Assembly (NCBI RefSeq): GCF_004010195.1
Contig: NC_057719.1
Coordinates: forward strand, 22,521,062 to 22,583,242
Source: Chiloscyllium plagiosum
Taxonomy: Eukaryota
Reading direction: 5' to 3'
Length of the DNA: 62,181 nucleotides
Under the pieces are notes generated by a model, which ran no database searches, was not told the origin of the DNA, and saw only the letters and a program-made list of their open reading frames with translations. Below are positions 3,884 through 62,181 of this stretch, piece by piece. Both the position numbers and the translations under genes were made by a program. Position 1 is the stretch's first letter. Every line of letters starts with the position of its first letter.

Positions 3884-5100
3884 AAAGTCAGAAGTCACAC
3901 AACACCAGATTATAGAAAACAGATTTGTTTGCAGTTACAAGCATTTGGAACACTGCTTCTTTATCAGGTGAAGTGAATGAAAGTGCACAGGCACAGAATA
4001 TATGGGTGGAGAGATAATGCCAAGTTAATTCCAGGAATTAAGAGTGTCAACCGATAAGCACAAATAGTGTTCATCATCCAGTACTCCTCCAGAGCACAGA
4101 AACTACGCCATGTCCTTCGTAGCCTTCAGCATGTCATTGATGATGAGGAACATCTCGATAAGGCCATCCCTACAGCTTCAAACAGCCTCCTAACTTTAAA
4201 CAGACCGTTGTTTGCAGCAAACTACTCAGTCTTCAGGAGAACAGCGCCCACAACACCACACAATCCTGCCATGGCAACCTCTGCAAGACCTGTCAGATCA
4301 TCAACATGGATACCACCATCACATGTGGGGACACCACACATCCCATGCATAGTACGTATTTAAGTGACTTGGCTAACATTGTCTACCTCATATGCTGCAG
4401 GAAAGGATGTCCTGAGGCATGGTATATCAGCGAGACCATGTAGGTGCAACAAAAATAGATGAACAGATACTGTGTAGCAATCACCAGACAGGAATGTTCC
4501 CTCCCAGTCAGAGAACACTTCAGCAGTCAGGGACATTCAGCCTCCAATCTTCGGATAAGTCTCCTACAAGGCAGCTTTGGAGAAACTGTTTTGTTTTGCC
4601 ATCATTACCTTCATTACTTGTTATGATCTCCCTACCTTAATTAGTTTGTATAGTCTTTTATTACTTGTTACTTTACCTCATATGCCACTCTGACACCAAC
4701 TCATGTTATTTGAGCCACTTGATTCGTCTCGAGCATCATCTTATTTTTGGTTATTTGTCACGATCTCTCTGCCTTAATTAATCAGTTCATAGGTCAACCC
4801 TTCACTTGTTATTCAGCTGTTGACACTTTACTCACACCATTCAACACTTTTGTCATCTGCAAAGACTTGTTATTCAGCTTGTTGACACTCCAGTCACAGT
4901 ATTTGTTCTTATCGGTTGACACTCTGAATTACTGGGAATTATCTTGCTATTATCTCTCCACCAATATATTCTGTGCTTATGCACTGATGAAGGAACAGCA
5001 TTCTAAAAGCTTGTGATTTCAAATAAACATGAAGGACTATAACCTGGTGTCATGTGACTTCTGACTTTGTCCTCCCCAGTCCAACACCAGCACCTCCATG
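3884..5100 (+). mobile_element. Penelope-like retroelement remnant: GIY-YIG endonuclease end flanked by inverted terminal repeats
   Basis: Frameshifted CHGNLCKTCQII...NIVYLICCRKGCPEAWYISET...REHFSSQGH; ~3886-3975 is an inverted copy of ~4980-5067; hammerhead-like CTGATGAAGGAACAGCATTC at 4984. Confidence 0.85.
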
Positions 5101-11957: not shown

Positions 11958-13183
11958 AGAGCCTGACGTCAGTGGTGGGCAAGTTGTTGGAGGGAATTCT
12001 GAGGGACAGGATGTACATGTATTTGGAAAAGCAAGGACTGAATAGGGATAGCTAACATGGCTTTGTGCGTGGGAAATCATGTCTCACAAACTTGATTGAG
12101 TTTTTTGAGGACGTAACAAAGAGGAATGATGAGGGCAGAGCGGTAGATGTGATCTATATGGACTTCAGTAAGGCGTTCGAAAAGGTTCCCCATGGGAGAC
12201 TGATTAGCCATTTGGATACATAACTGGCTCAAAGGTAGAAGACAGAGGGTGGTGGTGGAGGGTTGTTTTTCAGACTGGAGGCCTGTGACCAATGGAGTAC
12301 CACAAGGATCGGTGTTGGGTCTTCTACCTTTCGTCATTTGCGTAAATGATTTGGATTCGAGCATAAGAGGTACAGTTAGTAAGTTTGCAGATGACACCAA
12401 AATTGGAGGTGTAGTGGACAACGAAGAGAGTTACCACAGATTACAACAGGATCTTGACCAGATGGGCCAATGGGCTGAGAAATGGCAGATGGAGTTTAAT
12501 TCAGATAAATGCGAGGTGCTGCATTTTGGGAAAGCAAATCTTNNNNNNNNNNNNNNNNNNNNNNNNNNNNNNNNNNNNNNNNNNNNNNNNNNNNNNNNNN
12601 NNNNNNNNNNNNNNNNNNNNNNNNNNNNNNNNNNNNNNNNNNNNNNNNNNNNNNNNNNNNNNNNNNAAAGATGTTGTGAAACTTGAAAGGGTTCAGAAAA
12701 GAGTTACAAGGATGTTGCCAGGGTTGGAGGATTTGAACTATAGGGAGAGGTTGAACAGGCTGGGGCTGTTTTCCCTGGAGCGACGGAAGCTGAGGGGTGA
12801 CCTTATAGAGGTTTACAAGATTATGAGGGACATGGATAGGGTAAATAGACAAAGTCTTTTCCCTGGGGTCGGCGAATCCAGAACTAGAGGGCATAGGTTT
12901 AGGGTGAGAGGGGAAAGATATAAAAGAGACCAACGGGGCAACATTTTCACACAGAGAATGGTATGTGTATGGAATGAGCTGTCAAAGAAAGTGGTGGAGG
13001 CTGGTACAATTGCAACATTTAAGAGGCATTTGGGCTGGGCATATGAATAGGAAGGGTTTGAAGGGATATGGGCAGGGTGCTGGCAGGTGGGACTAGATTG
13101 GGTTGGGATATCTGATCAGCATGGATGGGTTGGACCGAAGGGTCTGTTTCCATGCTGTAAATCTATATGACTCTATGACTCTA
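11958..13183 (+). mobile_element. CR1 (HER1-like) LINE 3' part spanning an assembly gap
   Basis: GVPQGSVLG, SKFADDTK, LERVQKRVTRMLPG; tail (actctatg)n. Confidence 0.92.
12543..12666. other. Assembly gap (124 N)
   Basis: Run of N. Confidence 1.
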
Positions 13184-16980: not shown

Positions 16981-17202
16981 AAGGAGGTTCATGGATGACT
17001 GACCCATCTGGATACTAACTGAGCTCCTTAAGTTGGCAAAGGAAGAAATACCAAACACGCAGACATGGCAAAGACTGGCTTACTGATTGTAAAAAGAGAA
17101 AGGCAGGAGTCAATAAAAGTGTGTTTGGTTAAAGTCAGGGCTTTGTTGGTAGGTTGAAGTTGACTAATGATTAAAATGAATTCAGCTTGAAGTGTTGACG
17201 GG

Positions 17203-17388
17203 AGAAAGTGAGGGCTGTAGATACTGGAGATCAGAGTCGAGAGTGTGGTGCTGGAAAAGCGCAGCAGGTCAGGCAGCATCCAAGGACCAGGAGAATCAAC
17301 GTTTCAGATTTAAGTCCTTCGTCAGGAATTCCTGATGAAGGGCTTATGCCCGAAACATCGATTCTCCTGCTCCTCGGATGCCACCTGA
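17203..17388. mobile_element. Short fold-back PLE-derived element with TSD
   Basis: Inverted repeat centred on tcaggaattcctga; flanks cttgaagtgttgacggg (17186-17202) / cttgaagtgctgacagg (17389-17405). Confidence 0.85.
17332..17359 (+). ncRNA. Minimal hammerhead ribozyme motif
   Basis: CTGATGA-A-GGGC-TTAT-GCCC-GAAA-CA-TC. Confidence 0.65.
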
Positions 17389-20994: not shown

Positions 20995-21124
20995 AACCAA
21001 AGAACTGCGGATGCTGGAAATCAGAACAGAAAAATGGTCACTAGACCTGAACCGTTACCTCAGCTTTCTCTTCACAGGTGCTGCCTGACCTGTTAACCTT
21101 TCCAGCAATTTCTGATTTTGTTTT
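20995..21124. mobile_element. Degenerate fold-back PLE terminal fragment
   Basis: gaactgcggatgctggaaatcagaac ... tccagcaatttctgattttg in inverted arrangement. Confidence 0.6.
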
Positions 21125-21736
21125 GCACTTGATCATTATTTGTTTGGAGTAATATTTCCTTCATTCTTCGCTGAATGTCCTGTCTTTGATTTTAAGATAA
21201 TATTCTCTTATCTGATACTCTCTCACACCTTTGAAAGCAATTTCTCTCTGTTCTCTAAATTCTAAAAATCCCTAAATTTCATGTTAAATGCTATTTCCCA
21301 AGCCATTCAATAATCTGTGGGCTATTAGTATGCTTTGTACAATTTCTCCTCATAGTTCAATATTTGAAAAACTGGTAACTTGTTAGTGAGTTGACAATGT
21401 ATTATTTCCAAGTCCATGGCATTTTTCCCAAGTGCAGTTCCCCAAACCATACTCAATACCTCTGATGTTTAATTAAGGCATTGTACAAGTAAGGAGTTAG
21501 TTAGCTTGGATGGCTGCTTATAACACAGAGCAATACTAACAGCATGAGTTCAATTCCCATACTCTCTGGGACATTGTGTATGGTGAGAGAAGAGAGGCTG
21601 ATACAATGTCCATTCCTTGCTCGAGAAAAAAACAGTTGATTTTGTTTTCTGATAATCAGAGGATCCTTTTTTGCAGTTAGTAACATTTTTCTTGCACTAC
21701 CCACATCTTCAATATATTATCTGGGCTGACATCAAT

Positions 21737-22032
21737 TGTTAAGGTTCACTTGAGAACGTAACTTTTGAAAAAGGTTTTGCAATTTACATATGAAAGAACT
21801 GAAACCAACATGGCCATTTGAACAAATGAGAGGCTTAACAAACAATCCAGGTCTTTTTTTAATATATGATTTCAATACATCATGATTTTTCAATACATCA
21901 CACTGTAAACTTTTGCTATAAATTCTGTGTCTTTCAATCTTTTACTCCACAACCACCTGATGAAGGAGTGGCGCTCCGAAAGCTCGAGCTTCCAATTAAA
22001 CCTGTTGGACTATAAGCTGGTGTTTTTTTTTA
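21737..22032 (+). mobile_element. PLE terminal repeat with hammerhead core
   Basis: Homologous to 20630-20922. Confidence 0.78.
21954..21988 (+). ncRNA. Minimal hammerhead ribozyme motif
   Basis: CAC-CTGATGA-A-GGAGTG-G-CGCTCC-GAAA-GC-TC-GAG, with palindromic AGCT in place of stem III. Confidence 0.65.
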
Positions 22033-22454
22033 ACCTTATATTAATGAGGGTTTGCTCAGTTAATTGTCTTGGTGGTTCAACAATGGGTGTTTTTGAAACA
22101 TTTGGTGAGCTCCAGTGAATTTGAGCTCTAAATATATTCTGACTGATCCACCTTTTAGAGAGAATTTAAATATGTCTTAAGCTAAGGTAAATTTGTTCAT
22201 AGAATTCTTTAAAACCTAAGTGGCATGGAAGGCTTCATGAGTTACACGTGGATCAATATTGAAGGCATGGCCAAGGTCCCCCCTAATTTTTGAAAACTTT
22301 TCAAATTCTCTATAAAAGCTATGTAGCAATTGTAATTAGCACATTTTCCCTGCCCCACCAAAATCTGGGTCCTGCTTCACCCCATGACACTTGGGCTACA
22401 CATTAGCTATTTTAAAATCAAAACTGCAGCAAGATATTTTAGAAGTACAACATG

Positions 22455-23050
22455 AAGCATTGAGTATAGGAGATGGGAAGCTTGTTGCAGCTGTGCAAGA
22501 TGTGCCACACTTGGAGTACTATGTTTGCCCAGCATAGAAAGGATATCATTAAACTTGAAAGAGTGCAGAGAAGATTTACTGGGATACTACCTGGTCTGGA
22601 AGGCTTGAGTGAGAAGGAGAGGTTGGACAGGCTGGGTCTTTCTTCCCTGGAGTGTAAGAGACTGAGGGGTTACCTTATAGGAGTGGATACAATCATGAGA
22701 AGCATAGATGAACTAGATAGCTGACAGCTTTTCTGCAATGATAGTGCAGTCAAAAACTAGAGGGTAATAGATTTAAGGTGAGAGTGTTGGGATAAAAAGC
22801 ATCCAGAGGGGCAATGTTTCACACCAAGAGTGATGAATGTCTGGAACAGGCTACCCAGGCTACCAGTGGTGGAAGTGAGTACAATTCCATCATTTCATAA
22901 ATATTTCAGCAGGTATATGGATGGGATAGGTAGGGAGGGAGACGAACCAAACACAGGCAAATAGGAATGATTTAGTTGTGAAAACTGGGTGGCTTGGACA
23001 AGTTGGGCCAAAGGGCTTGTTTCCATGCTGTAGACATCTATGACTCTCAT
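22455..23050 (+). mobile_element. CR1 LINE 3' fragment
   Basis: KDIIKLERVQRRFTGILPGLEGL; tail tctatgactct. Confidence 0.85.
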
Positions 23051-23091
23051 TTCAGTGTGACAATTCAAATGTGGTAATAGACAAGGAATAC

Positions 23092-23341
23092 TGTGATGAT
23101 GCTGCTCCTTTAACAAGGTTATGTTGTCCTTGTTCTTTCTTCAGGGGGGTCATAAATGCAGAGGTTCTGGTTGTCTGGCTCGGATGAGTTTAAGGGCCAA
23201 TTTGATTCTATCTAAGAGGCACTACCTCAGGCAATTTCTTTCAAGTTTTATAAAACACACATCTAAAATGAAAGGGGAGTGGCCAGCTCTGCCAGCTCAG
23301 ATTTTCTCTGGTCTGGTTTGGTTTGGTTGGGTTTTTAGCAG
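23092..23341 (+). mobile_element. Probable solo LTR, 5' part (interrupted by PLE)
   Basis: Starts tgtgatg; non-coding; stops abruptly at the PLE terminus; apparent continuation at 30241-30619. Confidence 0.5.
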
Positions 23342-26300
23342 GAAAAACTGAGGACTGCAGATGCTGGAGATGAGAGATGAAAAGTGTGGTGCTGGAAAAG
23401 CACAGCAGGTCAAGCAGCATTGAGAAGCAGGAGAGTCGTCATTTCATGCATAAGCTGTTCATCAGGAATGTTGGGGGGTTGGTGGAGCGGGGAGTGTGGT
23501 GGGCAGAGGACAGAAGTGGGCTGAGAGATAAATAGGAGAGTGAGGGTGGGGGTTGGAGGGAAGGTAGCTGGCAAGGTGATAGGTAGATGCACGAGGAGGG
23601 CGGTAGTGATAGGTCAGAGGGGAGGGTGGAGTGGAGAGGTGGGAACGAAGATGGACAGGTAGAACAGTTAAAGAGGGCGGAGCTAAGTTGGATGATTGGA
23701 TCCGTGATAAGGTGGAGGGAGGGGAGATAAGGAAACTGGTGAAATTGACATTGATGCCATGTGGTTGGAGGGTCCCCAGGTGGATGATGGGATGTTCTTC
23801 CTCCAGACATCGGGTGGTTTGGATTTGGTGGTGGAGGAGGCCCAGGAGCTGTATGTCCTTGGCGGAGTGGGAGGGGGAGTTGGAGTGGTCGGCCTCAAGT
23901 TGGTGGGGTTGTTTGGTACATGTGTCCGAAAGATGTTCCCTGAAACATTCTGCGAGTTGGTGTCCTGTCTTCTCAATGTAGAGGAGACCAAATCGAGAGC
24001 AATGGACACAATGGATGAGGTGTTTGAAGGTACAGGAAAATCTAAGCTAGATGTGAAAATATCCTTTGAGGCCTTGGATACAGGTGAGGGGATAGGTATG
24101 GCCGCAGGTTTCACATTCTTGCAATGGCAAGGGCAGGTGCCAGGACTGAAGGGTGGACTGGTGGAGAGCATGGACCTAATGAGGGAGTCGCGAAGGGAAT
24201 GGTCTCTGTGGAATGCTGATGGGGTGGGGAGGGAAATATATCTCTAGTAGTAGGCTCTGACTGTAGGTGGTGTAATTGGCAGAGGATGATGCACTGTAGC
24301 CGGAGATTGGTGGGGTGGAAGGTGAGGACCAAGGCGGTCCTGTCCTTGTTGCAGTTGAAGGGGAGGGGTCAAGGTCAAAAGTGTGGGAAGTGGAGGAGAT
24401 GCGCTAGAAGGCATTGGTGACCATGTGGGAGGGGAAATTGCAGTCCTTGAAATAGAAGTCCATCTGGGATGTCCTGCGGTGGAATAGCTTCTCCTGGGAG
24501 CAGATGCAGCGGGGCAGAGGAATTGGGAATGAGGGATAGCATTTTACTGGGGGGGAGGGGGAGGGTGTGGAAGGAGGCATAGTCCAGCTAGCTGTGCGAG
24601 TCGGTGGGTTTGAAATAGTCGTCCCTGTTCAGTTGGTCTCCGGAGATGGAGATGGAGAGGTCCAGGAAGAGGAAGGAGGTATCCGAGATGGTCCAGGTGA
24701 ACTTAATGTCAGGGTGGAAGGGGTTTGTGAAGTTGATAAGCTATTCAACCTTTCATGGGAGCACAAGGTGGTGCTGATACAGCCATGAATCTAGTGGAGG
24801 AAAAGGTAGGGGATGATGTTAGTGTAACTGTAGAAGATGGACTGTTCCACATACCTGATGAAGAGGCAGGCTTAGCTGGGGACCATGTGGGGGCCCACAG
24901 TTACCCCTTTGGTCTGAAGGAAGTGAGAGGATTTGAAGGAGAAGTTGTTGAGGGTGAGGACCAGTTCTGGCAATCGAACAAGTGTGTCAGTAGAGGGGCA
25001 CTGGTTGGGTTGGCAGGAGAAGAAGAAATGGAGGACTTGGAGGCCTTCACCATAGCAGATGGGCGTGTACAATGTCCATGGTGAAGATGAGGCATTGGAA
25101 GCCAGGAGAAGGTGAATGGTGTGGGTGGTGTCCCAAATGTATGTGGGGAGTTCCTGGATCAAAGGGGACAGGACAGTGTCGAGACATGAGGAGATAAGTT
25201 CGGTGGGACAGGAGCAGGTGGAGATGATGGGTCAAGTGGGGCAATCAGGTTTTTGGGTAAGGGGTAGAACCGGGCGGTGCGGATTCTGGGACTATGAGGA
25301 TGGGGCTGTGGATGGGAGACCCCCTGAGGTGATGAGGTTGTGGATGGTCTGGGAAATTATGGTTTGGTGATGGGAGGTGAGGTCATGATCGAGAGGGCAA
25401 TATGAAGAAATGTCCGTGTGGTGGCGCCTGGCTTCAGCAGTGCAGAGGTCAATACGTGAATGTATCACTGTGCTCCGCCTGTCTGCTGGTTTGATGGTGA
25501 GATTGGGGTTGGAGTGGAGGGACTGGAGTGCTGCGCTTTATGAGGATGAGAGTTTGAAGTAGGATGGGAGGGGTGGGGAGATTAAGGAGGTTAATGTCAC
25601 GGCTGCAGTTGGAGATGAAGAGATCAGTGCGGGTAACAGACCAGCACAGGGTGTCCAAGAGGATGGGGTGTGTTGGAGGTAGGAGAAGGGGTCCTCGGAG
25701 GGTAGGTGGGAGTCATGATTGAAAAAGTAAGCTCGGAGGCAGAGGTAGTGGAAGAAAAGTTTGATGTTGCAGCGCAAATGGAATTTGTCGACCCATAGGT
25801 GGAGTAGGATGAGGATGAGACCTTTATTGAGGACTGATCCTTCATCTTCAGTGAGGGGAAGATCTGGTGTTTGGTAAAAACTCAGTAGGGCTGGGGGCTG
25901 AGGCTTGGTGCAGAGCAGGAGTTGGAAGTTGGGGCGGAGACCATTTCTGGAGTGTGTGTTGTTATGATGTCATTGGTGACGTCATGGGTGATGTCACCAG
26001 AGGAAGTGACGCAAACAGTGGTAGTCAGGGTGGCAGAGGCAGTGCGTTCAGTGGCACCTGGGGTGCTAGAAGTGACGTTCCAGGTGCAATTCATGGAAAT
26101 GGTGTTTTTGGCAGCAACGTTCCTGGAGGTGATATGGTCAGCGGGACTGAGGTGAGTGACGTCAGCAGTGGAGAGAAAATGGTAGGTGCAGCGGCAATCA
26201 TGGGGGTGGAAGTGACATTTAAGGTGGCACAAGAGGAAATGGTGCTTTCAGTGGTGTGTGGTCATTGGTGGCGTACCGGTGAATGACACCGGTGGGGACA

Positions 26301-29300
26301 GAAGTGGCATAGGGGGCGGCAATCACTGTGGCTGAAATGGCGTGGTGACAGAGTTCATGGAGGCAGTGGTGGCAGAGGTTACAGTGACGAACAAGGAGAT
26401 GGTGGTTATGGCGGTGATCATGGTCGTGGTGGACCTGGCGGCGATCACAGACCTGGTGGTTCTGGCAGTGATTACGGAGATGGTTGTTCTGGCGGTGATC
26501 ATGGATGCAGTTGTTCTGGCGGCAATCACAGCGGCAGAGGTTATGAGGGTGTCCGCGGAGGCGGTGGTTATGACAGTGATCATGTAGATAGTGGTTACGG
26601 AAGTGAACGTGGAGGTCGCAGTGATTACAGCTGTGATCGCGGAGGCAGTGGTTACAGTGGTGACCGCAGAGGCAGTGATTACAGCAGTGATCGTGGAGGC
26701 AGTGATTACAGTGGTGACCGTGGAGGCAGTGATTACAGCGGTGATCGTGGAGGCAGTGATTACAGCTGTGATCGTGGAGGCAGTGATTACAGTGGTGATC
26801 GCGGAGGCAGTGGTTACAGTGGTGACCGTGGAGGCAGTGATTACAGTGGTGACCGCGGAGGCAGTGATTACAGCTGTGATCGTGGAGGCAGTGATTACAG
26901 CGGTGATCGCAGAGGCAGTGATTACAGTGGCGATCGCGGAGGCAGTGATTACAGCTGTGATCGTGGAGGCAGTGATTACAGCGGTGACTGTGGAGGCAGT
27001 GATTACAGCTGTGATTGTGGAGGCAGTGATTACAGTGGTGACCGCGGAGGCAGTGATTACAGCGGTGATCGAAGAGGCAGTGATTACAGCTGTGATCGCG
27101 GAGGCATTGATTACAGCTGTGATCGTGGAGGCAGTTATTACAGCTGTGATCGTGGTGGCAGTGATTACAGCTGTGATCGCGCAGGCAGTGATTACAGCTG
27201 TGATCGTGGAGGCAGTGATTACAGCTGTGATCGTGGTGGCAGTGATTACAGCGGTGATCGTGGAGGCAGTGATTACAGCTGTGATCGTCGAGGCAGTGAT
27301 TACAGCTGTGATCGCGGAGGCAGCGATGACAGTGGTGATCGTGGAGGCAGAGGTTACAGTGGTGATCGTGAAAGCAGTGGTTACAGTGGTGATCACGGAG
27401 GCAGTGATTACAGCTGTGATCGTGGAGATAGTGATTACAGCTGTGATCGTGGAGGCAGTGATGACAGTGGTGATCGTGGAGGCAGTGATTACAGCTGTGA
27501 TCGTGGAGGCAGTGATTACAGTGGTGATCGTGGAGGCAGTGATTACAGCGGTGATCGTGGAGGCAGTGATTACAGTGGTGATCGCGGAGGCAGTGATGAC
27601 AGTGGTGACCGTGGAGGCAGTGATTACAGCGGTGACTGCGGAGGCAGTGATTACAGTGGTGACCGCGGAGGCAGTGATTACAGTGGTGATCGTGGAGGCA
27701 GTGATTACAGTGGTGATCGTCGAGGCAGTGATGACAGTGGTGACCGTGGAGGCAGTGATTACAGTGGTGACCGTGGAGGCAGTGATTACAGTGTTGACCG
27801 TGGAGGCTGTGATTGCAGTGGTGATCGTGGAGGCAGTGATTACAGTGGTGATCGCGGAGGCAGTGATTACAGCGGTGACCGCGGAGGCTGTGATTACAGT
27901 GGTGACTGTGGAGGCAGTGATTACAGTGGTGATCGTGGAGGCAGTGATTACAGTGGTGACCGTGGAGGCAGTGATTACAGCTGTGATCATGGAGGCAGTG
28001 ATTACAGCTGTGATCGCAGAGGCAGTGATTACAGCTGTGATCGTGGAGGCAGTGATTACAGTGGTGATCGTGGAGGCAGAGATTACAGTGGTGACCGTGT
28101 GGGCAGTGATTACAGCTGTGATCGCAGAGGCAGTGTTTACAGTGGTGATCATGGAGGCAGTGATTACACTGATGACCGTGGAGGCAGTGATTACAGTGGT
28201 GATCGTGGAGGCAGTGATTACGGTGGTGATCGTGGAGGCAGAGATTACAGTGGTGATCGCGGAGGCAGTGATTACATTGGTGGCCGTGGAGGCAGTGATT
28301 ACAGCTGTGATCGCGGAGGTAGTGATAACAGTGGTGGCCGTGGAGGCAGTGATTACAGCTGTGATCGCGGAGGTAGTGATAACAGTGGTGATCGTGGAGG
28401 CAGTGATTACAGTGGTGTCCGTGGAGGCAGTGATTACAGCTGTGATCGCGGAGGCAGTGATTACAGCTGTGATCGCGGAGGCAGTGATGACAGTGGTGAT
28501 CGTGGAGGCAGTGATTACAGTGGTGATCGTGGAGGCAGTGATTAAAGTGGTGATCGTGGTGGCAGTGATTGCAGTGGTGATCGTGGAGGCAGTGATGACT
28601 GTGGTGATCGTGGAGGCAGTGATTACAGCGGTGATCGCGGACGCAGTGGTTACAGTGGTGATCGCGGAGGCAGTGATTACAGTGGTGATCGTGGAGGCAG
28701 TGATTACAGCTGTGATCGCGGAGGCAGTGATTACAGCTGTGATCGTGGAGGCAGTGATTACAGCAGTGACCGCGGAGGAAGTGATTACAGTGGTGACCGC
28801 GGAGGCAGTGATTACAGTGGTGATCATGGAGGCAGTGATTACAGTGGTGATAGCGGAGGCAGTGATTACAGCTGTGATCGTGGAGGCAGTGATTACAGTG
28901 GTGATGGCGGAGGCATTGATGACAGTGGTGACCGTGGAGGCAGTGATTACAGCAGTGACCGCGGAGGAAGTGATTACAGTGGTGACCGCGGAGGCAGTGG
29001 TTACAGTGGTGATCATGGAGGCAGTGATTACAGTGGTGATAGCGGAGTCAGTGATTACAGTGGTGACCGTGGAGGCAGTGATTACAGTGGTGATCGCAGA
29101 GGCAGCGATTACAGTGGTGACCGTGGAGGCAGTGATTACATTGGTGACTGTGGAGGCAGTGATTACAGTGGTGATCGCGGAGGCAGTGATGACAGTGGTG
29201 ACCGTGGAGGCAGTGATAACAGTGGTGACCGCGGAGGCAGTGATTAGAGAAGTGACCGCGGAGACAGTGATTACAGTGGTGATCATGGAGGCAGTGATTA

Positions 29301-30240
29301 CAGTGGTGATCATGGAGGCAGTGATTACAGCTGTGATCGCGGAGGCAGTGAATACAGTGCTGACCGTGGAGGCAGTGATTACAGCGGTGACCGTGGAGGC
29401 AGTGATTACAGTGGTGACCGTGGGGGCAGTGATTACAGTGGTGATCGTGGAGGCAGTGATTACAGCGGTGATCGCGGAGGCAGTGATTACAGTGGTGATT
29501 GTGGAGGCAGTGATTACAGCGGTGATCGTGGAGGCAGTGGTTTCAGCGGTGATCGTGGAGGCAGTGGTTACAGTGGTGATCGTGGAGGCAGTGATTACAG
29601 TGGTGATCGTGGAGGCAGTGATTACAGCAGTGATCGCGGAGGCAGTGATTACAGTGGTGATGGCGGAGGCAGTGATTACAGTGGTGATCGCGGAGGCAGT
29701 GATTACAGTGGTGACCGCGGAGGCAGTGATTACAGTGGTGATCATGGAGGCAGTGATTACAGTGGTGCTCATGGAGGCAGTGATTACAGTGGTGACCGTG
29801 GAGGCAGTGATTACAGCAGTGATCGTGGAGGTGGTGATCCTGGTGATGATCGCGGAGGTGGTGGTCCTGGCGGTGATCGCGGAGGTGGTGGTCCTGGCAG
29901 TGACTGTGGAGGTGGTGGTCCTGGCAGTGACCGTGGATGTGGTGGTCCTGGCGGTGATCGCGGAGGTGGTGGTCCTGGCAGTGACTGTGGAGGTGGTGTC
30001 CTGGCGGTGATCGCGGAGGTGGTGGTCCTGGCAGTGATCGCGGAGGTGGTGGTCCTGGCGATGATCGCGGAGGTGGTGGTCCTGGCAGTGACCGTGGAGG
30101 CGGTGGTCCTGGTGATGATCGCGGAGGTGGTGGTCCTGGCGATGATCGCGGAGGTGGTGGTCCTGGCAGTGACCGTGGAGGCGGTGGTCCTGGTGATGAT
30201 CGCGGAGGTGGTGGTCCTGGCAGTGACCATGGAGGTGATT
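23342..30240 (-). mobile_element. Penelope-like retroelement (RT + GIY-YIG), 5'-truncated, decayed, containing an expanded minisatellite
   Basis: Minus strand: DLPLTEDEGSVLNKGL..KLFFHYLCLRAYFF (~25700-25860); RT ELVLTLNNFSF..HFLQTKGVT.GPHM.PS (~24870-24970); GIY-YIG-like LIHCVHCSRFGLLYIEKT (~23965-24025); terminal repeat at 23342-23470. Confidence 0.88.
26390..30237. repeat. 27-bp minisatellite (~140 units, two unit types)
   Basis: Core 26610-29820: (gaggcagtgattacagtggtgatcgtg)n, ~119 units; 29820-30237 and degenerate 26390-26530: (gcggaggtggtggtcctggcggtgatc)n. Confidence 0.97.
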
Positions 30241-30619
30241 GTTGCCGTCTGGCTGTTCAGAGCTACTGGTCAGTGGTTATCTGGGATCTGAAAGAAACAG
30301 CTCCATGGAAGAAGGTGTTTCTTACTGAATGTATCTGTCATTTCTCCCTCTCTTCTGTAAGACCTTGTATTTGATTTCACCTTTTTTGCCAAGGTATGTT
30401 TATGGGGATTGTGCAGGAATTTGGAACAGCATCATTTAGTTAGGATAGTCTGCTGGTACTCTGTAAACAAATTCTGTTTTATTTCAAACTGAAGAGTTTT
30501 GACCAGCTCCATCAAACCTGGGATGTCCATTCAACATCTGCTCAACACAACCAGAAAGGTTAGGGTCTGGGCTACCTTCCTGAAATGTTTCGAGGGGATG
30601 TCTGGTCTGGTCCATAATA
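30241..30619 (+). mobile_element. Probable solo LTR, 3' part
   Basis: Non-PLE sequence resumes right after the array; ends tctggtctggtccataata (degenerate ...taaca LTR end). Confidence 0.5.
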
Positions 30620-31355
30620 ATACAAATTAAGATACATGAGAGTATCAGCTCCATGTGAATATTTTTGGGTTCTCACTTGTCCCATCCATCTGCCTGGGTG
30701 GTGCTTTAGTCCCTGCTTCCTGCTCACTTGACACTCAGGGCCTGCTCACCATCCAACCGACACCTGGGGCTCCACCCCAGCGGGTGCTCAAACACTCTCT
30801 CTCTGAATAGCCACTACAGGTTGGGTGTGGGGCCATTCAGGATAACACTTCAACTCACCAATGACAGTTTGCTTCTTTCCACCATGACTCCATCTTGAAA
30901 GGAGCAGCAAGATCGGAGATGGAGCCTGTGATTGAACGAGTTGGAGCCGCCTGCATGGGAAAGACGGAAGCCCTCCTTGGAGGAACAGTTCCTCAGGGAT
31001 TCTGCTTCTCTCATGAATAGGGGTGACTATTCTCTCATTTATTATGTGAGTGAATTTTCAGGGATGATTTGGGAATTTTGGGGTTGAATTTGCACATCAC
31101 CTCCGTACATTTTAAACACTGATGTTCTCATGACCTCTCATCTTCACTCACAGACCGATGGAGAAGTGAAAACCATGAAGATATTAATAATTAATATATA
31201 TGATTTGGATTAAAAAATCCAAAAGTGCTGTGGACAAGTTTCCATATGACACAAAAATAGGTGGGAAGGCAACTGGTGAACATGACACAAAGAGTCTGAA
31301 GAGGAATATAGCCAGGTTAAGTGAGTGAGCACACGCTTGACTGATGTAACATAAT

Positions 31356-31517
31356 TGAGAGTGTGGTGCTGGAAAAGCACAACATAGTTTCCTGATGAGG
31401 GGCTTACGCCCGAAACGTCGATTCTCCTGCTCCTCGGATGTTGCCTCACCTGCTGCGCTTTTCTAGCGCCACACTGTTCGACTCTGATCTCCAGCATCTG
31501 CAGTCTTCACTTTATCC
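31356..31517 (+). mobile_element. Short fold-back PLE-derived element with TSD, inserted in CR1
   Basis: gagagtgtggtgctggaaaagc inverted relative to gctttttctagcgccacactg; flanks tgatgtaacataat / tgaaggaacataat. Confidence 0.8.
31392..31419 (+). ncRNA. Minimal hammerhead ribozyme motif (intact core)
   Basis: CTGATGA-G-GGGC-TTAC-GCCC-GAAA-CG-TC. Confidence 0.72.
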
Positions 31518-32301
31518 TGAAGGAACATAATGTGGAGACGTGAGATTATGTGTATTGGTGGGAAGACGAGAGGCAATGAATACTATTTAAATGGAAAAAA
31601 GAATGCGGAAAACTACAGAGCAGACGGATTTGGGAGTCACTGTCCATGAATAACAAAAAGCTACATTCCCAGTAAAGTGGGTAACAGGGAAGGCAAATGG
31701 AATGTTGGCCTTTATTTCAAAAGGAATTGGAGTATAAACATTGGGAGGTTTTGCTAGAACTGCACAAGGCACTAGTCAGAATGCAGCAGGAATACTGCGA
31801 TCAATTTGGGTCCCTTATTGAAGGAAATATACACTGGCATTGGAGCTGGTCAAAGAAGGTACACTCACTGATACTAGTTATGGATGGACTGTCTTGTGAG
31901 GAGATGGCCTGTAGAGGATAGGGCCTGTAAATGTTGGAATATAGAGGAATGAGAGGCAAGCGTGTTGAATCATTCTTGATAGGATAGATGCAGAAACATT
32001 GTTTCACCTCCTGGAAGAGTCTAGGACTACAGTGCACAATATCAGAATAAGTGGATGGATATTCCAGAGAGAGATTAGGAGGAATTCCTTCTCTCAGAAG
32101 ATTGTGAATCTGTGGAACGTTTTGCTACGGGGGCTGTGAAGGCTGCGTCATTAAGTGCATTGGAGGCTGAGATAGACAGGTTTCTAATCAGTAAGGAAAT
32201 CAAAGGATATGGGAAAAGGGCAGAAAAGTGGAGTTGAGGATTATCAGAACATCAAGATCTCATTGAATTGAGGAGCAGAAGATAAAATGAATGGCCTAAG
32301 A

Positions 32302-32605
32302 GACGGCAAGGCGGCTCAGTAGTTAGCACTACTGCCTCACAACACCAGGGATCTGGGTTTGATTCCAGCCTTGGGTGACAGTGTGGGGTTTGCATGCTCT
32401 CCCCGTGTCTGTGTGGGTTTCTGTCAGCTGCTCCCACAGTCCAAAGATGAACAGGTTAGGTGAATTGGCCATGCTAAATTGCCCATAGTGTTCAGGGATG
32501 TGCAGGCCACATGGATTACCCATGGGAAATGCAGGGTTTCAGGGATAGGGCAGGGAGGTGGGATCCTCTTTGGAAGGTTAGTGTGGACTTGATGGATTGA
32601 ATGAC
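32302..32605 (+). mobile_element. HE1-type SINE
   Basis: ggcggctcagtagttagcact head and core. Confidence 0.85.
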
Positions 32606-33629
32606 TGGAGGGTGGAGGAATTCTGTGGTGAGAAATCAGGAAGCACAGTCCTCAAACAGGCAGAACAACATCATTCAAACTCCAGTGGGAACACATAGAA
32701 CAAACAGAAAACTGGTTGTATTACTTTGACATTGAGAATGTAAAAGTATGACTGCCACAAACTCACAGCTCATGTGAAAAGAACTACAATTGCCTGCCAG
32801 AAAGGTAATTGTGTCACAGAACAAATTAAAGCCCATTACTCTCAATCAATGATAACAAGACAAATGTTAGGGAGAGCTGGAAAAGTAACAGAGACTTGAT
32901 CTATAATGTTCAGACTTGGCTGATGGGGCTGTGGGAATTAAATTAGGATGTAAATAGTTAAATGAAGTTGATGCATAAATTGAGGGTAAGTTGGGGGAAA
33001 TATAGTACAATGAGAATGGATCCAATGTGTAGGCAAGCTGGATTATCTTTGGTAAATGCAGGGTTATGGAGATAGGGTAGGGGGCTGGGGCTGGTTGCAA
33101 TTCTCTTCTGACTGTCAGTGCAGTCTTGATGGATCAAGTTGCCTCTTACCCCACTGTAGGGATTCTATAATCCTGAGATGGTGACGTTTATCATGATGAA
33201 ACAGAGATATCAACAGTCTGTAAGAGTCTCTGAAGAAAGGATGAAATAGTCTACACCAGTGAGAGATGTATTTACCAGAGAACAGTCTTATCTATGATAG
33301 TGTAACTAAAAGAGTTTGTAAAACCTATTAGGGTTAGAGAGCAGTCGCCTATAGATAATGGGAACCTATTACAGGTCACAAACTACCAGCTGATTAGCTA
33401 TCTCTCTCATGTACAGAAGAGAACTCTGAGCTTCATGTCATCACAATCAGTCATAGATCCAATAGATGGGTAGAAAGACAGCGGGATAATAGGATAATGA
33501 CCACAGCACTGTTCATTGTTCATGCACTGAATTATGAAGTAGCAAACAATATCACTGAATATTACCTGTACTAGGAAGAGGTGGCAAGGCAATGACATTT
33601 GCATGGCTGAAGTGAAATATGGAGGGGGC

Positions 33630-34290
33630 AGCATTTACACTATAGTGGGAGGGGGATGGTTGGAGTGCTGGAGGCGAAAGGATGTTGATAGTTCAGATTA
33701 AGTAATCAGAATGTGGGAATAGCAGAACAGTGGCATGTCTAACTGCCAGACTTTAGCTGGTCATTATACTACAGCATCCTGTTCGCATGCCCACTTGTCT
33801 GTCCTTGGCATGCTGCAGCACTCCAGTGAATCACAGCGTAAACTGGAGGAACAACATCTCATCTTCAAACTAGGTAGTTTACAACCTTTTGGGCTAAATA
33901 TTGAGTTCAACATCTTGAGGTTGTGAGCCAATTCCTTCCCTTCCTTTTAGTTTTGTTTGTTACATTCTCTGTCACCACCCTCTTCCCCCAGCACCACACC
34001 CCAGTGGGACTGTCTGCTCTTCCCAGTCTGGCAGTTAGACACACCATTGTTCTGCCATTCTCACATACCAGTCACTTAATCTGAATTTACCAACATCCTT
34101 TCTACCCCAGCGCTCCAACCACCCCCTCCCACTATAGTGTAAATGCTACACCCCTCCACATTTCACCTCAGCTCTGATGAAGAGTCACCTAAACTCGAAA
34201 CGGTAGCTTGCTCTCTCTCCATGAATGCTGTCTGACCTGCTGTGATCTCCAGCAATGGTTGTTTCCAGTTCAGATTCCCACATCTGACAT
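33630..34290 (+). mobile_element. PLE 3' remnant with inverted partial terminal repeat
   Basis: QRKLEEQHLIFKLGSLQPFGLNIEF (endonuclease C-terminus); ~33630-33752 is an inverted copy of ~34025-34147; hammerhead CTGATGAAGAGTCACCTAAACTCGAAAC at 34174. Confidence 0.85.
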
Positions 34291-36370: not shown

Positions 36371-36502
36371 CATTCCTGATGAAGGGCTTATGCCCAAAAC
36401 ATCGATTCTTCTGCTTCTAGATGCTGCCTGACCTGCTGTGCTTTTTCAGTGCCACGCTTTTCGACTCTGATTTCCAGCATCTGCAGTCCCCACTTCCTCC
36501 TT
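36371..36502 (+). mobile_element. PLE terminal-repeat fragment
   Basis: cattcctgatgaagggcttatgccc...ctgatttccagcatctgcagtcc. Confidence 0.85.
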
Positions 36503-36930
36503 GTCACTGATGTGATCCCAGTCATTGGTAATACTTGTCAGATTCCAGCATGAACTCTGGTTTGATGTACCATGCATTTTATTTTATCATTTCTTTTTCT
36601 ATCAAGGAGATCAGCCACTGAACATATTCACAAGAATCTGCAAAAATACTTTTATCAAATCAAATCAGGAATTATGCAAGAACTACTGAAACTGTCTCAT
36701 ATTAAATATCTGAAAGTAAATAGATTCTGTTTATCCCAACTATAATGTTGCAGACACTTAAACCCCAGTGGAAAATATCCTTATTTCAACACTGTGGCTT
36801 TTTGTTTGGCTGATATAGCTGCAGTTAGTTTATTTCTGACAAATTTCTGTTGTGCATTTACTCAATGTATTTTCTTAGTTAATATTTCAGCACGGGGCCC
36901 TTAAAATAAACTGCTAACTCAGGTAATAGC

Positions 36931-37137
36931 TGAAAATGTGTTGCTGGAAAAGCGCAGCAGGTCAGGCAGCATCCAAGGAACAGGAGAATCGACGTTTCGG
37001 GCATAAGCCCTTCCTGAAGAAGGGCTTATGCCCAAAAGTCGATTCTGCTGTTCCTTGGGTGCTGCCTGACCTGCTGTGCTTTTCCAGCAACACATTTTCA
37101 GCTCTGATCTCCAGCATCTCCAGCCCTCACTTTCTCC
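36931..37137. mobile_element. Short fold-back PLE-derived element with TSD
   Basis: ~85-bp near-perfect inverted arms; flanks taactcaggtaatagc (36915-36930) / taactcaggcaatagc (37138-37153). Confidence 0.9.
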
Positions 37138-54276: not shown

Positions 54277-55000
54277 TAGATTTGATTCCCTACAGTGTGG
54301 AAACAGGCCATTTGGCCCAACAAGTCCACACCAACCCTCCGAAGAGTAACCCACCTGGACCCATTTCCTTCTGACTAATGCACCTAACATGATGGGCAAT
54401 TTAGCATGGCCAATCCACCTAACCTGGCGAAAGTGAGTACTGCAGATGCTGGAGATTAGAGTCAAGAGTGTGGTCCTGGAAAATTACAGCAGGTCAGGCA
54501 GCATCTGAGGATCAGGAAAATCGACGTTTCGGGCAAAAGCCCTTCATCAGGAATGAGGCTGGGAGCCTTGTGGGTGGAGAGATAAATGGGTGGGGGTGGG
54601 GCTAGGGGGGCAGGGAAGGTAGCTGAGAGTGCAATAGGTGGAGATAAAGGTGATAGGTCAGAGGGGAAGATGGACAGAGTCATGAGGACAGTGCTGAGCT
54701 GGAAGGTTGGAACTGAGATAAGGGGAAATGAGGAAACCTATAGCGATGCCATGTGGTTGCAGGGTCCAGAGGCAGAAGATGATGTGTTCTTCCTCCAGGC
54801 ATTGGATGGTAAGGGAGTGGTGATGAAGGAGGCCCAGGACCTGCGTGTCTTTGCAATTCACCTAACCTGCACATATTTGGATTGTGAGAGGAAACCCATG
54901 CAGACACAGGGAGAATGTGCAAACTCCACATATGTTAGTTTAAACCCAGGTCCCTGGTGCTGTGAGGCAGCAGTGCTTACCACTGAGCCATTGTGCCACC
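54277..55000 (-). mobile_element. HE1-type SINE split by a PLE insertion
   Basis: SINE halves at 54277-54426 and 54854-55000. Confidence 0.85.
54427..54853 (-). mobile_element. 5'-truncated PLE with intact hammerhead core and 16-bp TSD
   Basis: LEEEHIIFCLWTLQPHGI endonuclease end; CTGATGAAGGGCTTTTGCCCGAAACGTC (54550-54523); TSD caatccacctaacctg / caattcacctaacctg. Confidence 0.88.
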
Positions 55001-59235: not shown

Positions 59236-61810
59236 CTCAGTGTTGAAAAGTGTGGCGTTGGAAAAACACAGCAGGTCAGGCAGCATCCAAGAAGCAGGAG
59301 AGTCGACATTTCAGCCGTAAGCCATTCATCAGGAATGGTGGGGTGAGGTGGGGGGGATGTCGGTGGGATGAGAGATAAATAGGAATGTGGGGGTGGAGGT
59401 AAGGTAGCTGGGAAGGGAAACTGGTGAAGTCGACGTTGATGCCGTGTGGTTGGAAGATCCCAAGGCGGAAGAGAGGCATTTTTCTTGAGTCATCAGGTGG
59501 CTAGGATTTAGTGGTGGAGGAGGCTCAGGACATGCATGTCCTTGGCAGAGTGGGAGGGGGAGTTGAAGTGGTCAGTCACAGGGTGGTGGGGCTGTTTGGT
59601 GCTTGTGTCCCAGAGATGTTCCCTGAAACATCCCGTGAGGTAGCATCTTGGCTCCCCAATATAGAGGAGACCACATCGAGAGCAACAGACACAGTAGGGT
59701 CATAGACTGCTGGAGATGCACAGCACGGAAACAGACCATTCGGTCCAACTCGTCCAAGAAAACCAGATAACCAAAACTAACCAATCCCATTTGCCAGTCA
59801 TAGGGTCATAGAGTCATAGAGATGTACAGCATGAAAACAGACCCTTTGGTCCAACCTGTCCATGCCGACCACATATCCCAGCCCAATCTGGTCCCACCTG
59901 CCAGCACCCGGCCCATATTCCTCTAAACCCTTTCTAATCATATACCTATCCAGATGCCTTTTAAATATTGTAATTGTGCCAGCCTCCACCACTTCCTCTG
60001 GCAGCTCATTCCATACACGCACCACCCTCTGAGTGAAAAAGTTGCTCTTTAGATCTTTTTTATATCTTTCCCCTTTCATCCTAAACCTATGCCCTCTAGT
60101 TCTGGAATCCCCCACCCCAGGGAAAAGACTTTGTCTATTTACCCCGTTCATGCACCTCATGATTTTATAAACCTCTATGAAGTCACCCCTCAGCCTCCGA
60201 TGCTCCAGGGAAAACAGCCCCAGCTTGTTCAGGTGTTTGCAAGTGCAGGGAAATCTCTGGTGAATGTGAAAAAATCCTTTGTGGCCTTAGACAGAGGTGA
60301 GGGGGGGAGGTGTGGATGCAGGTTTTACACCTCTTGCGGTGGCAAGGGAAGCTGCTGGGAGTGGGTAGTGGGTTGGTGAGGAGCATGGATCTAACAAGGG
60401 AGTCATGGAGAGAATGGTCTCTGCAGAATGCTGACAGGGGTGAGGAGAGAAATATATCTCTGGTACTAGGGTCTGACTGTCAGTGGCGGAAATAGTGGAG
60501 GATAATGCACTCTATCCAAAGATTGGCGGGGTGGAAGGTGAGGAGCGGGGGACTCTATCCTTGTTGTGGTTGGAGGGGTGGTGTTCAAGGATGGAGGTGC
60601 AGGAAGTGGAGGAGATGTACTGGAGGATATTGTTGATCATACGGGAGGGGAAATTGTGGTCCTGAAAATAGAAGGCTAACTGGGATGTCCTGGTGTGGAA
60701 TGAGAGCAGATGCAATGAAGGCAGAGGAATTGGAATAAGGGATCACATTTTAACAGGGTGTTGGGAGTAGGTGTAGTTCAGGTAGCTGTGGGAGTCTGTG
60801 TGTTTGAAGTAGATGTCCATGTTGAGTCGGTTGACAGAGATGCAGACGGAGAGGTCCAGGAAGAGGATGGGAGTGTCTCAGATAGTCTAGGTGAACTTAA
60901 GGTCAGGGTAGAAGGTGTTTGTGAAGTTGATGAACTGTTCAACCTCCTCGTGGGAGCACAATGTGGCGTTGATGCAGTCATCAAGGTAACGGAAGGAAAG
61001 ATGGGAGATGGTGCCAGTGTAACTGTGGAAGATGAACTGTTCCATGTATCTGATGAAGAGGGAGGCATAGGTGGGGCCCATGTGGGTACCCATAGTTACC
61101 CTTTTGGTCTGAAGGACGTGGGAGAATTCAAAGAAGAAATTGTTGAGGGTGAGTACCAGTTCAGCCAATCAAATGAGTGTGTCGATGAACAAGTACTGGT
61201 TAGGTTGGTGGGAGAGGGAGAAATGGAGGGCTTGCAGGCTTTAGCCATGGCAGATGGATATGTATAAGGACTGGTTGTCCAGGATGAAGATGGGGCATTG
61301 CAAGCCAGGGAAATGAAAGTCATGGAGGAGGTGGAGGGTGTGGGCAATGTTCCAAAACGTTGTGGGATGCTCCTGGACCACAGGGGACAGGACAATGTCA
61401 AGGAATGAGGAGATAAGTTTGGTGGGGCTGAGGCAGGCGGAGTTGATGGGTATACCGGGGCAGTCAGCTTTGTGAATTTTGGGTAAGGGGTACAACCAGG
61501 CAGTGCGGGGTTCCGGGACTATGAGGTTCGAGGCTGTAGATGGGAGATCCCCTGAGGTGACGAGGTTGTGGATGGTCTGGGAGATGATGGTTTGGTGATG
61601 GCATGTGGGGTCATGGTTGAGGGTGCAGTAGGATGAGGTGTCTGTGAATTGGTGCCAGCTTTAGCCATGTAGAGGTTGATGCGCCAAACAACCGCTGCTG
61701 ACCCCCCTTGTCCACTGGTTTAATGGTGAGGTTGGGGCTGGAGTGGACGGATTGGAGGGCTGAGCTTTGTGAGGGTGAAAGGTTGGAGTGGGTGAGAGGG
61801 TGGACATTTG
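59236..61810 (-). mobile_element. Penelope-like retroelement (RT + GIY-YIG), same family as 23342-30240
   Basis: LTIKPVDKGG, PKIHKADCPGIPI, TMGTHMGPTYASLF, FRYLDDC, CHRKRCKTC, LLYIGE. Confidence 0.9.
59698..60230 (-). mobile_element. CR1 3' fragment plus a second short tail copy, inserted in PLE
   Basis: SRTRGHRFRMKGERYKKDL; tail (actctatg)n at ~59798-59820; extra tail fragment at 59698-59797. Confidence 0.88.
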
Positions 61811-61896
61811 AGACAAAGGAGAGCCAGTGGACATGATCTATTTGGCTTTGACTACATTCTGCACAAGACACTACGAGACAAGACCCCATGATATTA

Positions 61897-62181
61897 GGGG
61901 AGAAAGTGAGGAATGCAGATGCTGGAGATCAGAGCTGAAAATGTGTTGCTGGAAAAGCGCAGCAGGTCAGGCAGCATCCAAGGAACAGGAGAATCGACGT
62001 TTCGGGCATAAGCCCTTCTTCAGGAATGAGGAAAGTGTGCCCAGCAGGCTAAGATAAAAGGTAGGGAGGAGAGACTTGGGGGAGGGGCGTTGGAAATGCG
62101 ATAGGTGGAAGGAAGTCAAGGTGAGGGTGATAGGCCGGAGTGGGGTGGGGGCAGAGAGGTCAGGAAGAAGATTGCAGGTTA
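61897..62181 (-). mobile_element. Young PLE 3' terminal repeat (runs off the window) with intact hammerhead core
   Basis: CTGAAGAAGGGCTTATGCCCGAAACGTC on minus strand (62023-61996); near-identical to the arm at 36931-37013. Confidence 0.88.

Follow-up and report, generated by a model that had tools for sequence, protein, structure and literature searches.

Minisatellites derived from transposons are known from Alu, B1, MaLR and Gmr9/Ogre elements (PMC6947457), and at least 23% of human mini/satellites are transposon-derived (Ahmed and Liang, PMC3389668). In such cases, duplication of a short segment within a transposon copy is followed by local expansion. EN+ Penelope-like elements (PLEs) of the Penelope/Poseidon type are characterized by an RT followed by a C-terminal GIY-YIG domain, by a hammerhead-like 3' core and by 5' truncation (PMC11167929; PMC8557442), the latter being usual for PLEs (PMC8557442). 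In the gadid antifreeze glycoprotein (AFGP), homogeneous expansion between older degenerate 27-nt duplicates gave a Thr/Ala-rich proto-ORF (PMC6410882), and further de novo gene comparisons are offered by the snailfish AFP (bioRxiv 10.64898/2026.04.28.721326) and human orf143 (PMC12888051). Mucin PTS domains have long tandem-repeat frames in which Ser+Thr exceed 40% (PMC4948705; PMC9417175).

The locus described here lies in a stretch of 62,181 nucleotides from Chiloscyllium plagiosum (contig NC_057719.1, positions 22,521,062 to 22,583,242 of the forward strand), the whole of which is called the window. It carries a 27-bp array that is probably a neutral minisatellite (VNTR), grown on the spot at the 5' terminus of a Penelope/Poseidon-type copy that is old, dead and 5'-truncated, and that most likely belongs to an already known kind, the transposon-derived minisatellite. 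As in the described cases, the array lies against a transposon copy and is like it in sequence character; unlike the Alu, B1, MaLR and Gmr9/Ogre cases, its host is Penelope-like and its seed is apparently a coding-type low-complexity linker, whose 3-nt periodicity gives open frames. Literature searches listed no title on a Penelope-linker minisatellite; PLE families with tandem repeats are listed in S1 of PMC8557442. The arrangement of a homogeneous expansion between older degenerate units also resembles that of the gadid AFGP, the closest analogy being the non-transcribed homologs of basal gadids (PMC6410882). However, for AFGP, the snailfish AFP and orf143 the gain of a signal peptide, a promoter and transcription or translation is documented, in which they differ from the present array.

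Host element and spacer

The element, the spacer and the array blocks occupy the following positions in the window:
23340..23731, minus strand: element 3' end, pLTR-like (23339-23470 matches other mini-elements)
23732..24319, minus strand: decayed C-terminal GIY-YIG endonuclease region, aligning to the C-termini of P0003, P0004 and P0151
24320..25870, minus strand: decayed RT region of Penelope-like type, identical to P0154 in 327 of 505 aligned columns
25871..26376, minus strand: Thr/Ser/Ala-rich spacer of about 480 bp at the linker position, with one stop and three frame changes
26377..26622, minus strand: block C, nine degenerate units (cut at 26619-26377), consensus TTSMITAIT
26623..29835, minus strand: block B, 119 units without indel, consensus TASTITTVI
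29836..30240, minus strand: block A, 15 units including a 1-nt loss near 29998, consensus TTSAITART
30241..30260, no strand: apparent element 5' boundary, an abrupt composition switch to host-like

An earlier note on this DNA had placed the array in a decayed PLE, and a Thr/Ser/Ala-rich segment just upstream of a conserved PLE block; both points were confirmed: the RT region has accumulated 11 frameshifts and 7 stops, with loss of the DKG and catalytic DD motifs, and the DLPLTEDE..KGL block begins at 25867. P0154 is the one full-length shark family protein found, and the nearest named proteins are XP_072440417.1, XP_072438985.1 and XP_072420898.1 (Chiloscyllium punctatum). P0003 and P0004 give weak Pfam GIY-YIG matches, just under the curated cut-off. 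A candidate minimal hammerhead-like core lies at 23465 (motif scan), and Rfam returned none at gathering score. The domain order by itself, a PLE-type RT with decayed motifs followed by a C-terminal GIY-YIG, suggests an EN+ Penelope-like element of the Penelope/Poseidon clade; unlike the described EN+ PLEs, the copy is dead and not full-length, with no detectable N-terminal domain. The array sits exactly at the apparent 5' break, and no Penelope-like protein match was found upstream, at 30241-33000. For the N-terminal domain in the same interval, neither an HMM built from 13 relatives nor P0154 alignments allowing for frameshifts rose above null level (the RT control scoring 484-496 against a null maximum of 50), and tblastn of 154 proteins gave no match upstream; a by-eye resemblance at about 30600-30700 was supported by none of the alignment tests. 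Because this domain was not found upstream, the term linker is anchored on one side only.

The spacer and the array resemble the element in its strand-biased base composition, minus-strand A/C/G/T being.23/.40/.13/.25 over the body of the element and.23/.39/.15/.23 both in the spacer and in block B, against.37/.23/.17/.23 just upstream of the array. The spacer also bears a weak likeness to the unit: unit-like motifs occur in it (26110-26350) at a score that none of 200 dinucleotide shuffles but 11 of 500 codon shuffles reach, and are absent from two RT stretches and from the upstream DNA. The last 29 codons of the spacer are collinear with the end of the P0154 linker, directly before DLPLTEDE. 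The match to this linker, which is 154 aa long, rich in T/S/A/P and lacking a 9-aa periodicity, is marginal over the last 45 aa (7 of 200 shuffles) and does not exceed composition over the whole (40 of 200); spacer and array here span 4370 bp. Block C matches the same linker at a level reached by 5 of 200 shuffles and block A by 56 of 200, and a linker-versus-array score above the genomic null was dismissed as a composition effect. Neither P0154 nor 13 more distant relatives contain such an array. Contig depth is 19-110 over the spacer against 1e4-1e5 over the RT, and it already drops inside the RT start, at 25806; at 80% identity or more the spacer is, ambiguously, not a common family sequence. 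The proposal of the earlier note that the array is a runaway expansion of the linker stands as local expansion at the linker position of a decayed element, on composition and unit-like motifs, but is held back by the missing upstream N-terminal domain and the marginal linker match.

Structure and age of the array

TRF and unit cutting gave 143 tandem 27-bp units at 26377-30240 (15 + 119 + 9), where about 140 of near-constant length had been proposed; the 1-nt loss near 29998 is real, and a 3-nt in-frame extra lies at the B/C border. TRF itself reports a 27-bp array of 119.3 copies at 26618-29838, with 88% matches, 0% indels and a score of 4643, and two more at 29819-30237 (15.6 copies) and 26395-26505 (4.1 copies). 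Head-to-tail units within the 10-100 bp range and interspersed variant repeats are those of a minisatellite, and the array is far beyond chance. Block B, with 70 distinct unit types among its 119 units and a mean identity to consensus of 92%, looks like a young homogeneous expansion, along which variants are graded by position (1, 7, 7 and 13 per 30 units). The array includes a 7-unit block duplication, and rare variants are clustered (15 of 36 within 10 units, 10.5 expected, P = 0.044). Block A has a local 81-bp (3-unit) duplication and the longest exact repeat of the array, 106 bp (30035 vs 30116). Block C is the probable seed: its units are 77% identical to their own consensus, which equals that of A at 23 of 27 positions and that of B at 20 of 27. 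The array DNA has only chance matches of 13-23 bases in the rest of the window. Queried with the array translation, the ESM Atlas returned only uninformative scores of 0.79 or lower, and among 8000 scored candidates of 412-1313 aa, a protein search with the block C+B translation turned up no relative other than one phage-tail protein.

The insertion and the nine degenerate block C units are common to two related species (organisms B and C), in which orthologous contigs of single-copy depth cover 25803-26589 and 25807-26615, respectively. These contigs continue for 281 and 221 letters, and a same-species contig ends at 26446. Divergence in spacer plus block C is 5.6% vs 3.6% in the flanks for organism B and 8.4% vs 3.9% for organism C. 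The word shares of runs X11 and X18 are 0.08 and 0.06, with 0.05-0.10 and 0.02-0.09 expected from non-array words alone, an argument that leaves aside the small shares of runs X9, X10, X12-X17, X19 and X20; for organism B, the share has no room for repeated block B words, which make up 11% of distinct words. In organism C, depth reaches 335 in the last bin, where single copy would give about 9, a hint of related repeats in that organism. For CpG, the o/e ratio of block B is 0.84, compared with 0.35 for the element body and about 0.2 for the flanks, and CpG transitions are 8.9-fold above other C/G transitions (25/360 vs 11/1403), which indicates indirectly that block B is young and methylated. 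The age argument from CpG is weakened because old block C keeps its CpGs too (o/e 0.91). Overall, the array looks much younger than the element; for the epaulette shark, PMC10587355 gives the mutation rate per generation.

Reading frames and coding tests

Two open frames of the array are referred to below:
26326..29997, minus strand: Thr-rich open frame of 1224 codons; first in-frame ATG at 29772, giving 1149 aa
26588..30010, plus strand: opposite-strand frame (EAVITVVIV)n, 1140 codons, GRAVY 2.15

The suggested repeat readings, TASTITTVI on the minus strand and (EAVITVVIV)n on the plus strand, are those recovered for block B and the opposite frame. ORFs above 1100 codons had been claimed for both strands; they exist, as a minus-strand stop-to-stop ORF of 1317 aa (26323-30276) and the plus-strand frame, but the former is chimeric, its first ~92 codons being a His/Cys/Asp reading, and the Thr frame proper has 1224 codons. 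The array does not grade into the segment at 25882-26320, as had been thought: a TGA at 26323-26325 closes the Thr frame, and beyond it Thr-rich reading carries on only via three frame changes. The first ATG (30230) frameshifts and yields a 139-aa product. Two further long frames, a 942-aa His/Cys and a 752-aa GGSDYSGDR reading, are also open in the array.

The long ORFs are mechanical and follow from the letters of the unit, since 27 bp keep the frame, four of the six frames are stop-free and no Thr-frame codon of the unit is one step from a stop. None of the 9639 single-base changes in block B puts a stop in the Thr frame, and among 20000 shuffled units 95% have open frames on both strands; such frames do not exceed chance, and the plus-strand frame is a by-product. 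This is a caution for annotation: where repeats of triplet length have such a composition, kilocodon ORFs on either strand are the default outcome, and the length of an ORF is no guide to coding.

Resemblance to a mucin PTS exon, proposed earlier, was not supported. The Thr frame has 47% Ser+Thr, above the threshold of at least 40% taken from PMC4948705, but 31% Ile+Val and 3 prolines in 1224 codons (GRAVY 1.34), where proline in PTS domains is often above 5%; because proline is nearly absent, none of 113 windows has PTS composition. In contrast to mucins, no secreted precursor gene was found, and Pfam detected no mucin domain (VWD/SEA/CysD) in 269 ORFs, a set without exons below 45 aa and without 69 of the 110 longer ORFs. 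Of five frequency thresholds, two give a synonymous excess (P 0.025 and 0.037) and three do not; distinct variants include 14 synonymous ones against 13.8 expected, non-CpG variants 15 against 17.0, and five of seven common variants are nonsynonymous. No robust sign of selection on the reading frame or of codon constraint was seen: the stop test is uninformative, and a frameshift lies near 29998. Block B has no indels against 2.9-5.3 expected from the element's indel ratio (P 0.056-0.005), and 1.9 homopolymer runs per kb vs 53.9.

Origin of the array

An equally neutral origin outside the element, from host or captured sequence such as a dead mucin-like exon that happens to adjoin the truncated RT, is unlikely. 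The missing N-terminal domain, the low copy number of the spacer at 80% identity or more, the non-significant whole-linker homology and an acceptor-like TTTCTTTCAG at 30297-30288 would fit it. However, composition is identical to that of the element up to the sharp break at 30241, the spacer end runs collinearly into DLPLTEDE, each of the three frames meets a stop no more than about 30 nt from the acceptor, a GTRRG donor is absent from the minus strand at 25000-30300, and the 269 Pfam-scanned ORFs hold no mucin domain. It is improbable that a rare Penelope subfamily has the repeat as a feature of its own, or that reiterative, telomerase-like copying produced it at the truncation point when the element inserted; other copies would then carry similar arrays. 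The position of the array at the apparent 5' break, the multi-copy related sequence in organism C at 26481-26640 and the several Chlamys PLE families lengthened by tandem repeats (PMC8557442) speak for such a family feature, whereas organism B has the insertion and yet no room for block B words, block B looks much younger than the RT, P0154 and the 13 relatives have no such array, and the C+B translation search was likewise empty but for the phage-tail protein.

We regard as unsupported and highly improbable the idea, also raised in the earlier note, that the array serves as raw material for a de novo Thr-rich O-glycoprotein, as a transcribed proto-gene or exon. The 1224 open codons at 47% Ser+Thr, the indel-free 119 units, the synonymous excess at two thresholds and a trace RNA depth of 0.24-0.42 at 26292-26640 (first mates on plus; few reads, not assignable to the locus) would agree with it; but point changes cannot put a stop in the Thr frame, synonymous and non-CpG variants are close to expectation, common variants are mostly nonsynonymous, proline is scarce at GRAVY 1.34, the first ATG leads to the 139-aa product, RNA depth is zero across the spacer (25914-26291) in about 2% of one single-cell run, and the exact 1149-aa product is absent from the protein collection searched. 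No RNA data set was listed for 25900-30700, which counts neither for nor against transcription. There is equally little chance that some tissue transcribes the Thr frame, or joins it by splicing to a secretory exon, and translates it, as a mucin-like gene born from a Penelope linker whose unexpanded ancestral state could be read in sister species; if true, it would be a datable early-stage glycoprotein gene from retrotransposon linker DNA, set against unexpanded orthologues. Inflation of a short array by the assembly is hardly credible: an N gap lies elsewhere in the scaffold (12543-12666), but the 119 units of block B comprise 70 distinct types, exact repeats extend to 106 bp at most and stay below 85 bp inside B, variants follow the positional gradient, and 0.40 of the words are present in run X1 (possibly the source of the assembly), non-array words accounting for at most 0.31.

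For the neutral minisatellite grown in place, the following course may be proposed. Insertion and decay of the element predate the split of organisms A, B and C, as the orthologous single-copy contigs and the decay show. Its 5'-most part would have been a linker rich in C and in Thr/Ala/Ser codons that contained a few imperfect 27-bp repeats, namely block C, which the related species share, and probably block A; the linker origin of these repeats is presumed. Variant B would later have been amplified about 119-fold, pushing the A and C units apart; its youth is indicated indirectly, and the block duplications point to slippage or unequal exchange as the possible mechanism. The long ORFs arise from the frame-keeping, stop-free unit, and most likely the array is length-variable, methylated DNA and nothing more. 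As such, it offers a clean example of a transposon-seeded minisatellite whose probable seed is preserved in related species.

Structure and growth of the 27-bp array

The tandem array that the earlier note had described was recovered both by TRF and by cutting into units, and it is real. TRF reports a 27-bp array at 26618-29838 (119.3 copies, 88% matches, no indels) together with two further 27-bp arrays at 29819-30237 and 26395-26505, and the 1-nt loss near 29998 is confirmed. The units fall into three blocks:

29836-30240, minus strand: block A, 15 units, consensus TTSAITART
26623-29835, minus strand: block B, 119 units, consensus TASTITTVI
26377-26622, minus strand: block C, 9 degenerate units, consensus TTSMITAIT

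The outer blocks A and C are more alike (23/27) than A and B (18/27) or C and B (20/27), and block B is thus a young homogeneous core between older-type units. Its 7-unit duplication, clustered variants and positional gradient of variants point to growth by slippage or unequal exchange. The longest exact repeat in the array is 106 bp, which argues against an assembly artefact. The window's two element copies show 21 gaps per 313 mismatches, a ratio that would predict 2.9-5.3 indels for block B. The block contains none, but it is also nearly devoid of homopolymer runs. The CpG o/e of 0.84 in block B and the 8.9-fold faster CpG transitions indicate that the array is young and methylated, although block C likewise retains its CpGs.

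Host element and proposed linker origin

Next to the array lie a Thr/Ser/Ala-rich spacer (25871-26376) and a decayed Penelope-like copy (approximately 23340-25870, minus strand). A protein search with 25541-25969 retrieved two Chiloscyllium punctatum RT proteins, and a cluster look-up led to the full-length family member P0154 (XP_072440417.1). The alignment of window positions 25867-24419 to this protein has 327 identities in 505 columns and is interrupted by 11 frameshifts and 7 stops. A motif at 23465 resembles a hammerhead core; Rfam gave no support for a hammerhead there. The GIY-YIG regions of relatives align as far as 23732. RT followed by GIY-YIG, with 5′ truncation usual, is also the layout of EN+ Penelope-like elements (PMC11167929, PMC8557442), a likeness that places the element by layout.

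The earlier note regarded the array as a runaway expansion of the element's linker, a view that is partly borne out. P0154 has an N-terminal domain as well as a T/S/A/P linker of 154 aa, in which no 9-residue period is seen, and 13 more distant relatives (out of 153, the closest that carry this domain) have just 27-58 residues at this position. In favor of a linker origin, minus-strand composition is alike in element body, spacer and blocks C and B, switching abruptly at 30241, and the last 29 codons of the spacer align with the linker end of P0154 directly ahead of DLPLTEDE (score reached by 7/200 shuffles). The unit profile in 26110-26350 beats 200/200 dinucleotide shuffles, its score being reached by 11/500 codon shuffles (30/500 for the whole spacer), and no such score occurs in two RT stretches or upstream. 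However, the whole-linker match to P0154 is ordinary (40/200 shuffles), and no trace of the N-terminal domain could be detected in 30241-33000, although the RT, used as a control, reached 484-496 (null maximum 50). The copy was probably truncated inside its own linker, with the array sitting at the break.

Transposon-derived minisatellites are well known (PMC6947457, PMC3389668), and some Chlamys PLE families are lengthened by tandem repeats (PMC8557442); among the titles listed by literature searches, none concerned a Penelope-linker minisatellite. The array is probably neutral and belongs to this known class, and we consider the full model of a neutral transposon-derived minisatellite to be likely.

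Around residues 820-1170 of P0154, the RefSeq model runs from a Penelope-like ORF into a repetitive tail at the C-terminus, whose cytochrome c3 hit in Pfam is probably spurious, another repeat read as protein. A second decayed copy of the family (59520-61830, minus strand, 76% identity to the first) is truncated near 61800, lacks a linker and has a hammerhead-like mini-element ahead of it. More distant Penelope-like elements have left pieces of their endonuclease region on the plus strand at 4174-4566 (30% identity by tblastn) and 33753-33908 (37%). Repeats of ~130 bp akin to the element's 3′ end occur at 17200-17330, 21957, 31389-31517, 36371-36500, 37011-37137, 54426-54558, 59237-59337 and 61899-62028; several carry a minimal hammerhead-like core, and where compared with DNA runs the repeats are extremely deep. 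An 86-bp stretch is 100% identical between two mini-elements (36928-37013 and 61933-62018), which suggests recent activity. Note also a 21-bp triplication in a SINE-like repeat head (963-1023) and an assembly gap of 124 N (12543-12666) within a LINE-like fragment.

Related species and sequencing runs

Four of 24 listed runs were compared with 21000-26640 at 80% likeness. Single-copy-depth contigs from two related species, organisms B and C, span the RT start, the spacer and block C, and extend further by 281 and 221 unseen letters, respectively; the same-species contig ends at 26446. The contigs differ at 44/787 (organism B) and 68/809 letters (organism C), against flank divergences of 3.6 and 3.9%, and the spacer is therefore not conserved. 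Spacer depth is 19-110 versus 1e4-1e5 over the RT and reveals no family match that is abundant at 80% likeness; the collapse begins already inside the RT start, however, so this says little about the linkers of other copies. In organism C (run X18), summed contig depth over 26481-26640 is 335 versus ~9 for a single copy, which suggests that a related repeat has expanded in this species or that paralogous seeds exist. Among distinct 31-mers, non-array words account for 31% and repeated block-B words for 11%; if sampling was even, non-array words suffice to account for the word shares of runs X11 (0.08) and X18 (0.06), whereas that of X1 (0.40), possibly the assembly's source, requires array words.

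Reading frames and predicted product

Long ORFs on both strands, as the earlier note had reported, are present (1317 aa, minus; 1140 aa, plus), but two others (942 and 752 aa) had been overlooked, and the 1317-aa ORF turns Thr-rich only past the 1-nt loss. These ORFs are mechanical, a by-product of the unit. The unit has no stop in 4/6 frames; 20000 shuffles of the unit average 3.9 open frames, and in 95% of them both strands are open. None of 9639 possible single-base changes creates a stop in the Thr frame, and 21% of shuffled units have a frame that is equally immune to stops. The other open frames, a His/Cys-rich (CLHDHHCNH)n (26219-29047, minus) and (GGSDYSGDR)n (26287-28545, plus), have two stops each within block B, roughly the expected number.

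In the Thr frame, synonymous changes number 14 among distinct rare variants (13.8 expected) and 15 among non-CpG variants (17.0 expected). Contrary to the neutral reading, all 79 rare variants include 35 synonymous ones versus 25-27 expected (P 0.012-0.027), and when CpG effects are taken into account 2/5 thresholds give significance, but both counts include copied variants and are not independent.

Mimicry of a mucin PTS exon, also proposed earlier, fails in detail: the Thr-frame translation is 47% Ser+Thr (GRAVY 1.34), but because Pro makes up only 3/1224 residues, 0/113 windows pass the PTS threshold (Ser+Thr >40% with Pro >5%; PMC4948705). The first ATG (30230) yields a frameshifted product of 139 aa, and one has to go inside the frame, to 29772, for the next ATG in phase; after the best acceptor-like site (30288) stops occur in all frames, and the minus strand of 25000-30300 contains no GTRRG donor. 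Pfam revealed no host-gene domain above cut-off in 269 ORFs (41/110 of at least 85 aa, plus 228/233 shorter ones outside repeats), the hits being four RT and one ALKBH8_N in repeat-derived ORFs. With the C+B translation, 8000 scored candidates (412-1313 aa) gave one low-complexity phage-tail hit.

For RNA, ~2% of a single-cell poly(A) run was compared with a region ending at 26640, short of most of the array. Of 6478 aligned reads, 98% run on into unlike sequence and 23 reach at least 99% identity; depth is zero in 5/30 bins, including 25914-26291, and 0.24-0.42 at 26292-26640. This is weak evidence against transcription, from one sample and this region. The gadid antifreeze gene likewise grew as the stretch between older 27-nt duplicates expanded, but a frameshift and the gain of a signal peptide and promoter were needed as well (PMC6410882), and the origins of mucins in PMC9417175 begin from secreted proline-rich genes. 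The idea of a de novo glycoprotein gains no support here, and we regard it as very improbable that the array encodes a protein. Beside the array, motifs outline a possible plus-strand micro-exon at 30340-30400 (pyrimidine tract and AG, 32 bases, AAG|GTATGT).
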